DNA of 64,000 bases, taken from assembly GCF_016026235.1 (NCBI RefSeq), contig NZ_CP065613.1, one strand, 5' to 3'. The notes under the pieces are model-generated. The model was not told the origin of the DNA and searched no databases. It saw nothing but the letters and a program-made list of their open reading frames with translations. Source of the DNA: Escherichia coli. Lineage in GTDB: Bacteria > Pseudomonadota > Gammaproteobacteria > Enterobacterales > Enterobacteriaceae. Below, in pieces: positions 38,987 to 39,447 of the stretch. The first letter of the stretch is position 1. Each line of letters starts with the position of its first letter. Position numbers and translations under genes: made by a program.

Positions 38987-39228
38987 ACTCACAAATTAAC
39001 TTTCAATACTTTCCAGAGTATCGTTATCACAATTAAATACCTTTAAATATCAACAAGTTAAAGTATAAAAATCAGCATAAACCCTGATTTTTGTCAAAAA
39101 AAATGACGGGGATAACCATATTTTATGGCGATAACATCATTCGTTATGTGGTTAATACAAAAAAGGGGCTGAGACCATATTTCAAGCAATTACCGGATAA
39201 TTACCAGGCAAAATTTGAGTTAAATTTA

Positions 39229-39447
39229 ATGAGCAAGTTCTCAAATTTTATTATAAATAAACCATTTTCAGCGATAAATAATGCGGCACGTCACATTTTT
39301 TCACGCTATTTGTTGGAGAACAAACATTTATTTTATCAATATTTTAAAATTTCGAATACAGGTATTGATCATCTCGAACAATTGATTAACGTCAACTTTT
39401 TCTCTTCTGACAGGACGTCATTTTGTGAATGCAATCGTTTTCCATAA
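39229..39447 (+). CDS. tdcR: small divergent tdc regulator TdcR
   Basis: Within ORF 39091..39447 (118 aa); start at internal Met MSKFSNFIINK gives recalled 72 aa; start uncertain. Confidence 0.5.
   Translation: MSKFSNFIINKPFSAINNAARHIFSRYLLENKHLFYQYFKISNTGIDHLEQLINVNFFSSDRTSFCECNRFP

Follow-up and report, generated by a model that had tools for sequence, protein, structure and literature searches.

The gene tdcR of Escherichia coli lies in the window analyzed here, a 64-kb stretch of DNA, within an open reading frame (ORF) that can be read as 118 codons from a TTG at 39091 or as 72 codons from an internal ATG at 39229. To judge from related genomes, the 138 nucleotides (nt) between the two starts are very probably not conserved coding sequence. 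Because their starts are lost and their frame is broken in other Escherichia lineages, and because they hold a box that is kept across genera, we favor, with some reserve, the explanation that these 138 nt are control DNA of the divergent tdcABCDEFG promoter, stop-free by chance in E. coli, and that tdcR, if it is translated, starts at ATG39229. The current 72-residue annotation stands, since the 46 additional codons (39091..39228) are best read as cis-regulatory DNA of that promoter. With greater confidence, we propose that the tdcR ORF arose de novo in the ancestor of Escherichia, inside an older regulatory spacer.

The ORF on the plus strand runs through 118 codons to a TAA at 39445-39447, as the preliminary description of this DNA had it, and it is bounded on its 5' side by a TGA at 39085-39087. 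Four in-frame starts would yield proteins of 118 (TTG39091), 114 (ATG39103), 99 (GTG39148) and 72 amino acids (ATG39229, codon 47 of the long ORF); two of them, ATG39103 (39103..39105) and GTG39148 (39148..39150), had been overlooked earlier. The local GC fraction is 0.32-0.33, a composition at which each codon has a chance of about 0.07 of being a stop. When 39091-39444 was shuffled 5000 times by mononucleotides, only 2 shuffles had 118 or more consecutive open codons in one of the six frames, and in the real sequence the five other frames contain 4 to 7 stops each over the 72-codon core; therefore, the long open frame is genuine and unusual for such AT-rich DNA. A run of at least 72 codons occurred in 356 of the same 5000 shuffles. 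With the core taken as open, the frame would continue for another 46 codons by chance with a probability of about 0.035 (from 0.07 per codon), so that, set against chance, the continuation of the core is suggestive, not compelling.

The ambiguity of the start is a known annotation issue, already settled correctly by RefSeq, MG1655 and NCBIfam. The Prokaryotic Genome Annotation Pipeline (PGAP) of RefSeq places tdcR at 39229..39447 on the plus strand in every genome inspected, including FDAARGOS_943, K-12 NEB10-beta, 83972 and MG1655. In MG1655 the gene is b3119 (3267380..3267598, NP_417589.4, version 4 of the protein record), and this record agrees, like the NCBIfam profile NF008507, with the 72-amino-acid K-12 protein from Met 39229 that was given in the preliminary description. 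Residues 47-118 of the long ORF correspond to profile positions 1-72, all of which are matched, with 174-177 bits against a cut-off of 100 bits, while the 46-residue extension, searched alone against NF008507 and family profiles, gave no match. The 114-amino-acid form is nevertheless the commonest deposited version and dominates the older records (P0003, 2338 member sequences). Region 38915-39700 was found in 5392 of 5426 complete E. coli genomes; the window is 100% identical over it to FDAARGOS_943 and 99.2% identical to K-12 derivatives, and within the 72-residue core the window strain differs from K-12 by three residue changes (A15V, R21C and G45C).

The fate of the extension within Escherichia speaks most directly to the question. 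Our scan used one genome per species and returned seven loci, E. fergusonii not being among them; the lineages compared include clade I MOD1-EC7003, E. whittamii, Escherichia sp. E1V33, E. albertii, and E69 and SCPM-O-B-8794, two divergent strains labelled E. coli. In the alignment, no lineage except E. coli and MOD1-EC7003 has TTG39091 or ATG39103. The long frame is broken in E. whittamii, E1V33, E69, SCPM-O-B-8794 and E. albertii, either by stops or by 1-nt indels (an insertion near 39105, a deletion near 39160), and just 17-31 codons remain open ahead of the codon equivalent to 39229. These open codons include no ATG or GTG in four of the five lineages, and TTG is absent too, save one at -26 in E69. 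ATG39229 itself is kept in eight of nine Escherichia lineages, the type strain of E. albertii having ATA. Within E. coli, the natural variants P0020, P0022 and P0049 have a frameshifted extension and an intact core. The lost starts and the broken frame thus bear out the earlier suspicion that the longer frame may be an artefact of a promoter region.

The extension is conserved in a manner unlike that of coding sequence. A run of 27 nt within it, GGGATAACCATATTTTATGGCGATAAC (approximately 39109-39135), is identical across the nine Escherichia lineages, and since its third codon positions are as invariant as the others, it does not behave as translated DNA. Among 11 E. coli strains, polymorphic sites amount to 5 of 138 in the extension (3.6%), 19 of 216 in the core (8.8%) and 19 of 176 in the intergenic DNA (10.8%), and the extension changes comprise four nonsynonymous and one synonymous. 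Codon-level conservation of the 5' 138 nt had been named beforehand as the observation that would favor the long form; we found none, but this result does not separate long from short, as the core has none either.

What the extension does contain becomes apparent outside Escherichia. tdcR is placed divergently, directly upstream of tdcA (37976..38914, minus strand), which encodes a LysR-type regulator and is the first gene of the tdc operon. TdcA is widespread beyond Escherichia, and we compared tdcA loci of Salmonella enterica, Citrobacter freundii, C. farmeri, Klebsiella aerogenes, Raoultella, Yokenella, Pseudescherichia vulneris and Edwardsiella. In all of these outgroup loci at least 530 nt without a called gene precede tdcA, regardless of which gene comes next, and this DNA can be aligned to the window over the entire tdcR region, with discrete conserved blocks. 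One of them is the box ATAA-N7-TTATGG-N-GATAA at 39112-39134, which forms codons 8-15 of the long ORF and includes the dyad ATAA-N7-TTAT, of the T-N11-A type. Of 26 loci, 25 have a single copy of this box, placed 181-221 nt ahead of the tdcA ATG; they span nine genera, and in eight of these the tdcR ORF is missing. The overlap of the extension with tdc control DNA, proposed in the preliminary description, is thereby confirmed.

Given its dyad and its position, the box is probably a TdcA site. TdcA would bind it at about -177, counted to the box center from the tdc start inferred at about 38942; we placed this start via a TACACT -10 element and the position of CRP at -43.5 of the tdc promoter. 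A second conserved block, ATATTTCAAGCAATTAC at 39177..39193, would also belong to the control DNA in the extension, and it too is conserved across genera in which the ORF is missing. The same holds for TTAAATTTAATG, the block that contains ATG39229. Other conserved blocks are CTGATTTTxxTCAAAAAA, GTCACATTTTTT and AAACATTT.

The signals around the four starts point in the same direction, albeit faintly. Pairing with the anti-Shine-Dalgarno sequence is -2.2 kcal/mol at ATG39229, through the weak Shine-Dalgarno-like GAG at 39217..39219 on the plus strand (AAG in other Escherichia clades), and at least +0.3 kcal/mol at the other three starts; ATG39229 also has the least local structure of the four. 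A scan of the plus strand for promoters and terminators gave nothing above threshold. A looser promoter scan returned only matches of 8 out of 12 positions with conflicting starts, and we did not use it to decide. On the basis of genomic SELEX (systematic evolution of ligands by exponential enrichment), a promoter TTTAAA-16-TATAAA has been proposed at 39042-39069 (PMC3946193); an mRNA starting from it would cover the long ORF in full. Neither the tetracycline-profiling nor the N-terminomics supplements that we searched list tdcR or b3119.

These data also allow the opposite reading to be weighed, in which a long form of 114, 118 or 99 amino acids is real, or made in addition, in E. coli sensu stricto through a recent N-terminal extension running through the box. 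We regard this as unlikely. Its appeal lies in the rarity of so long an open run among the shuffles, in the wide deposition of the 114-amino-acid form, in the SELEX-proposed promoter, and in the frame and three upstream starts, which are intact in MOD1-EC7003 as well as in 11 of 11 E. coli strains. However, E. coli strains differ by at most 5%, so that an intact frame weighs little among them, and four of the five polymorphisms in the extension are nonsynonymous. ATG39103, the start of the 114-amino-acid form in many GenBank records, and GTG39148 are, like TTG39091, without a Shine-Dalgarno sequence. The extension lacks a profile match and is modelled by AlphaFold2 at a predicted local distance difference test (pLDDT) score of 36-39; starts and frame are absent from all Escherichia clades other than E. 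coli and clade I, E. coli variants with a frameshifted extension exist, and 46 more open codons are unremarkable by chance.

Several observations nonetheless weigh against control DNA followed by a start at ATG39229. All 11 E. coli sensu stricto strains retain TTG39091, ATG39103, GTG39148 and the 118-codon frame, and many deposited records use the 114-amino-acid form. The Shine-Dalgarno sequence at ATG39229 is very weak, and this codon is replaced by ATA in the E. albertii type strain, where the 72 downstream codons are still open. TTAAATTTAATG around ATG39229 is kept in Citrobacter freundii with no ORF after it; because the block is kept without an ORF, conservation of this ATG is not independent evidence of its use as a start. 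The weak promoter matches place transcription starts either near 39076-39079, so that the transcript would take in the long ORF, or near 39188 and 39208, too far downstream for it. In assigning the box at 39112-39134 to TdcA, we draw on the dyad and the position. Finally, Schweizer and Datta in 1989 reportedly described a minicell product of 99 residues and Mr 12,000, which would fit the long form better than one of 8.6 kDa. The annotation, the patterns of sequence conservation, the lack of the ORF elsewhere and the neutral pattern of substitutions are observed here, whereas the short form as the product made and the identity of the proteins that bind the conserved blocks are inferred.

Whether the 72-codon core is itself a protein gene proved to be the more consequential question. 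Across eight Escherichia lineages, its variable sites fall on codon positions 1, 2 and 3 in numbers of 21, 21 and 20, without any 3-periodicity. Nei-Gojobori dN/dS (nonsynonymous over synonymous substitution rates) is 0.5-0.8 for the core, and none of these values is significantly lower than 1 (Fisher p 0.22-0.64). The 20 codons directly upstream of the core gave 0.4-0.96, the three closest pairs being left out because they have too few changes. tdcA, our control for purifying selection, gave 0.01-0.03 (p = 4e-36). In the comparison of the 11 E. coli strains, we counted 17 nonsynonymous and 4 synonymous changes in the core, with a ratio of polymorphisms (pN/pS) of 1.0. The core thus displays neither a dN/dS clearly below 1 nor an excess of third-position changes, and a TdcR protein would be under little or no amino acid constraint. 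The residues that look conserved, RHIF, KHLFYQY and RTSFCECNR, are encoded by DNA blocks that are kept where no ORF exists.

The core is also interrupted in some genomes. A TCA-to-TAA change at codon 25 of the short form (the equivalent of 39301-39303) has led PGAP to flag tdcR of JJ2434 as a pseudogene, and 558 of 5365 complete E. coli genomes (approximately 10%) share the exact 67-nt context of this stop. The core of SCPM-O-B-8794 contains another stop. As separate observations on the core, the E. albertii type strain has an unrelated-looking sequence in place of the segment at about 39340-39385, and in MOD1-EC7003, E1V33 and protein P0035 the tdcR stop is lost, giving 78-amino-acid forms with a six-residue tail.

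Nothing in the predicted protein argues for a DNA-binding activator. No Pfam helix-turn-helix (HTH) family was found in TdcR at E <= 1, and AlphaFold2 gave a mean pLDDT of 40 and a predicted template modeling score (pTM) of 0.26, with no residue at or above 70, a confidence too low for a fold search. The models suggest neither an HTH nor a confident DNA-binding fold, and the shallow alignment behind them (15 sequences) limits the weight of this result. A match of the extension to the Pfam family BESS (15 bits against a cut-off of 21) was dismissed as chance.

From these results it is conceivable, although we consider it a distinctly minority reading, that there is no functional TdcR at all, the ORF being incidental to an AT-rich regulatory spacer that is conserved. 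The start question would then be moot, and the tdcR phenotype of 1989 would have come from cis DNA that was removed or titrated (TdcA, CRP/FNR-type and IHF sites) or from an RNA. Such a reading accommodates the even spread of substitutions over codon positions and the near-neutral dN/dS and pN/pS values, the codon-25 stop, the stop in SCPM-O-B-8794 and the ATA of E. albertii, the coincidence of every conserved protein motif with a DNA block also kept in ORF-less genera, the lack of a Pfam domain, HTH or confident model, and the eight other genera that have the tdc operon and its upstream unit without tdcR. On the other hand, constraint on the DNA can mask protein selection in dN/dS, and the structure prediction is handicapped by its few sequences. 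The original work, moreover, is said to have found both trans-activation and a minicell product; it is from the Datta laboratory (Schweizer and Datta 1989; Hagewood et al. 1994) that tdcR reportedly trans-activates the tdc operon.

The strongest objection to this reading is the persistence of the open frame. The 72-codon core is open in five of six non-coli lineages despite 19-58 substitutions, and the extension is not. When we re-placed the substitutions at random, either uniformly or weighted by outgroup variability, the core stayed open with P of 0.43-0.48 for MOD1-EC7003, 0.10-0.12 for E. whittamii, 0.14-0.17 for E1V33, 0.21-0.25 for E69 and 0.12-0.14 for E. albertii. Jointly, over four roughly independent lineages, the chance of an open core is approximately 1e-3, a rough value because the comparisons share the window branch. 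The diverged lineages thus appear to keep the core free of stops beyond what random placement would give. Frameshifts, for their part, are rare in the tdcR region because the length of the spacer is itself conserved. Persistence within Escherichia is the only argument for translation of the core, and the status of TdcR as a protein is weakly supported.

Outside the genus, tdcR seems never to have existed. A word-indexed search for TdcR homologues outside Escherichia retrieved nothing beyond entries from E. coli, Shigella and Escherichia. When 1.84 billion representatives were searched exhaustively with a profile, seven sequences matched, each a fragment of Escherichia tdcR. In four outgroup genera, the tdcR frame contains 1-5 stops over the extension and 3-5 over the core, with no gene called there, and the Salmonella upstream region has no shared small ORF on either strand. 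The homologous outgroup DNA thus appears to be non-coding, and no protein homologue was found outside the clade, as expected of an ORF born de novo. That tdcR is instead an old enterobacterial gene, decayed to a pseudogene in every genus but Escherichia, strikes us as very improbable. The region can indeed be aligned over its full length across genera, but no outgroup has a recognizable ORF or protein match, and at least eight independent losses would be needed. Furthermore, discrete blocks and a length of 500-505 bp would not survive the decay of a pseudogene over these distances, and the blocks resemble binding sites (CRP/FNR-type, T-N11-A dyad).

We thus return to an origin de novo, in which tdcR would be an Escherichia-only frame superimposed on an older unit of about 500 bp that holds no gene, is flanked by two CRP-type sites and goes with tdcA across the Enterobacteriaceae. 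The proximal site, TGTGCGACCACTCACA (38978..38993), belongs to the tdc promoter and is present in all 26 loci, with TGTG and TCACA invariant; the distal, near-consensus site, TGTGTTGAGGATCACA (39482..39497), lies 35 nt past the tdcR stop. They are the sole two exact TGTG-N7-TCACA sites of the window, and they bracket tdcR, which lies wholly within the spacer. Measured from start to start, the two sites are 504 bp apart in Escherichia (503-505) and 500-505 bp apart in seven other genera (e.g., in Salmonella, the two Citrobacter species, K. aerogenes, Raoultella, Yokenella and P. vulneris). The DNA between them is only about 55-70% identical across genera, with its length kept, and the gene-free unit travels with tdcA irrespective of the upstream neighbor. 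A more far-reaching version, to which we give only modest credence, adds to the de novo origin that all apparent conservation reflects protein-binding sites in the DNA, and that TdcR is not DNA binding and possibly not a functional protein.

Two further elements lie within this unit. An IHF-consensus-like sequence, TATCAACAAGTTA (WATCAANNNNTTR), at 39048..39060 has an ATCAA core that is conserved across genera; a role of IHF here was reportedly described by Wu and Datta in 1992. At the 3' end of tdcR, the CRP/FNR-type site TGTGAATGCAATCGTT (39424..39439) encodes FCECNR. The same columns read TTGATTAAAATCAA in Klebsiella aerogenes and Raoultella, a perfect FNR consensus (TTGAT-N4-ATCAA), and GTGATTCAAGTCAC in Yokenella (GTGA-N6-TCAC). 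Looking by eye for a -10 element at class I or class II distance from the distal CRP site, which would indicate a long tdcA leader or a rightward transcript, we saw no convincing conserved one. Apart from rnpB, no Rfam family was detected when 38000-40500 and the outgroup upstream regions were searched.

As far as we found, a length-conserved spacer between two CRP-type sites is a promoter architecture that has not been described in the literature. Full-text searches on tdcR turned up only passing mentions, and in the searchable literature we did not find tdcR described as an overprint, specific to Escherichia and near-neutral in its protein evolution, on a regulatory spacer that is conserved. 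The control region has been seen to change in vivo: E. coli in mice repeatedly gained an IS5 insertion at K-12 position 3265168 and an A-to-C substitution at 3265132, in the tdcA/tdcR intergenic region (PMC7518454). Assuming that these are older K-12 coordinates (tdcA ATG at 3265037, 2028 below NC_000913.3), the sites map to about 39045 for IS5, just 5' of the IHF-like sequence, and about 39009 for the substitution. In FDAARGOS_1296, the DNA between tdcA and tdcR differs in length by 1 nt, with tdcR annotated at 516 instead of 515 of its locus and the CRP sites 505 instead of 504 bp apart; its long ORF is intact.

Regarding the neighborhood, tdcB (36888..37877) is another tdc gene in the window, and yhaB and yhaC are the next genes 3' of tdcR. 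The start of yhaB is ambiguous as well, the longest ORF beginning at TTG39673 (39673-40242, 189 amino acids) and the RefSeq gene at 39703 (179 amino acids), where there is a good Shine-Dalgarno sequence (-7.6 kcal/mol). The AT-rich yhaB-yhaC segment at 39500-41600 (GC 0.27-0.36) is missing in 83972, FDAARGOS_1296 and JJ2434, and PGAP annotates two small pseudogene fragments. In 83972, rnpB directly follows tdcR; rnpB also adjoins the tdc upstream unit in Salmonella and Citrobacter.

For the start codon alone, little is at stake, as the annotation already follows the direction that we favor. Users of the 114-amino-acid records should be aware that the first 42-46 residues were probably never part of a protein and are encoded by a regulatory box. 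More matters for TdcR itself, which is listed as its own one-member transcription factor family in E. coli (PMC4797297). After 35 years among the E. coli transcription factors, it has no demonstrated amino acid constraint, and it is absent from other genera with the same operon. Models of the regulatory network that include an edge from TdcR to tdc stand on thin ground, and the reading of tdcR as an Escherichia-specific overprint is relevant to curators of E. coli transcription factors.

Comparison with known systems places tdcR between several categories. It is the same gene as tdcR b3119 of K-12 (DNA-binding transcriptional activator TdcR, NF008507/PRK11424), with the same neighbors and the same annotated start and stop; the "DNA-binding" label of the K-12 protein has no support in sequence analyses, which give no HTH domain and no confident fold. 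The history of its annotation resembles that of other over-extended N termini produced by longest-ORF calling, in that a 114-amino-acid frame was annotated first and later trimmed to an internal ATG. Corrections of erroneous initiation are usually based on the N termini of orthologues, whereas tdcR has no orthologues outside its genus and the part trimmed away is a conserved regulatory element.

The control region is reminiscent of LysR-type divergent promoters, in that a T-N11-A dyad (ATAA-N7-TTAT) with GATAA behind it precedes tdcA at a constant distance in nine genera. The box is farther away than the usual LysR-type site at -65, as it precedes the tdcA ATG by about 200 nt and would be centered at about -177. 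The ORF, in turn, shares its main traits with orphan or de novo ORFs: confinement to one genus, non-coding sister DNA with in-frame stops, AT richness, a weak ribosome-binding site, near-neutral evolution and no predicted fold. Typical de novo ORFs emerge in neutral intergenic DNA; tdcR, by contrast, sits inside a functional, length-constrained regulatory region and, unlike them, is credited in the literature with regulating the very promoter that it overlaps.

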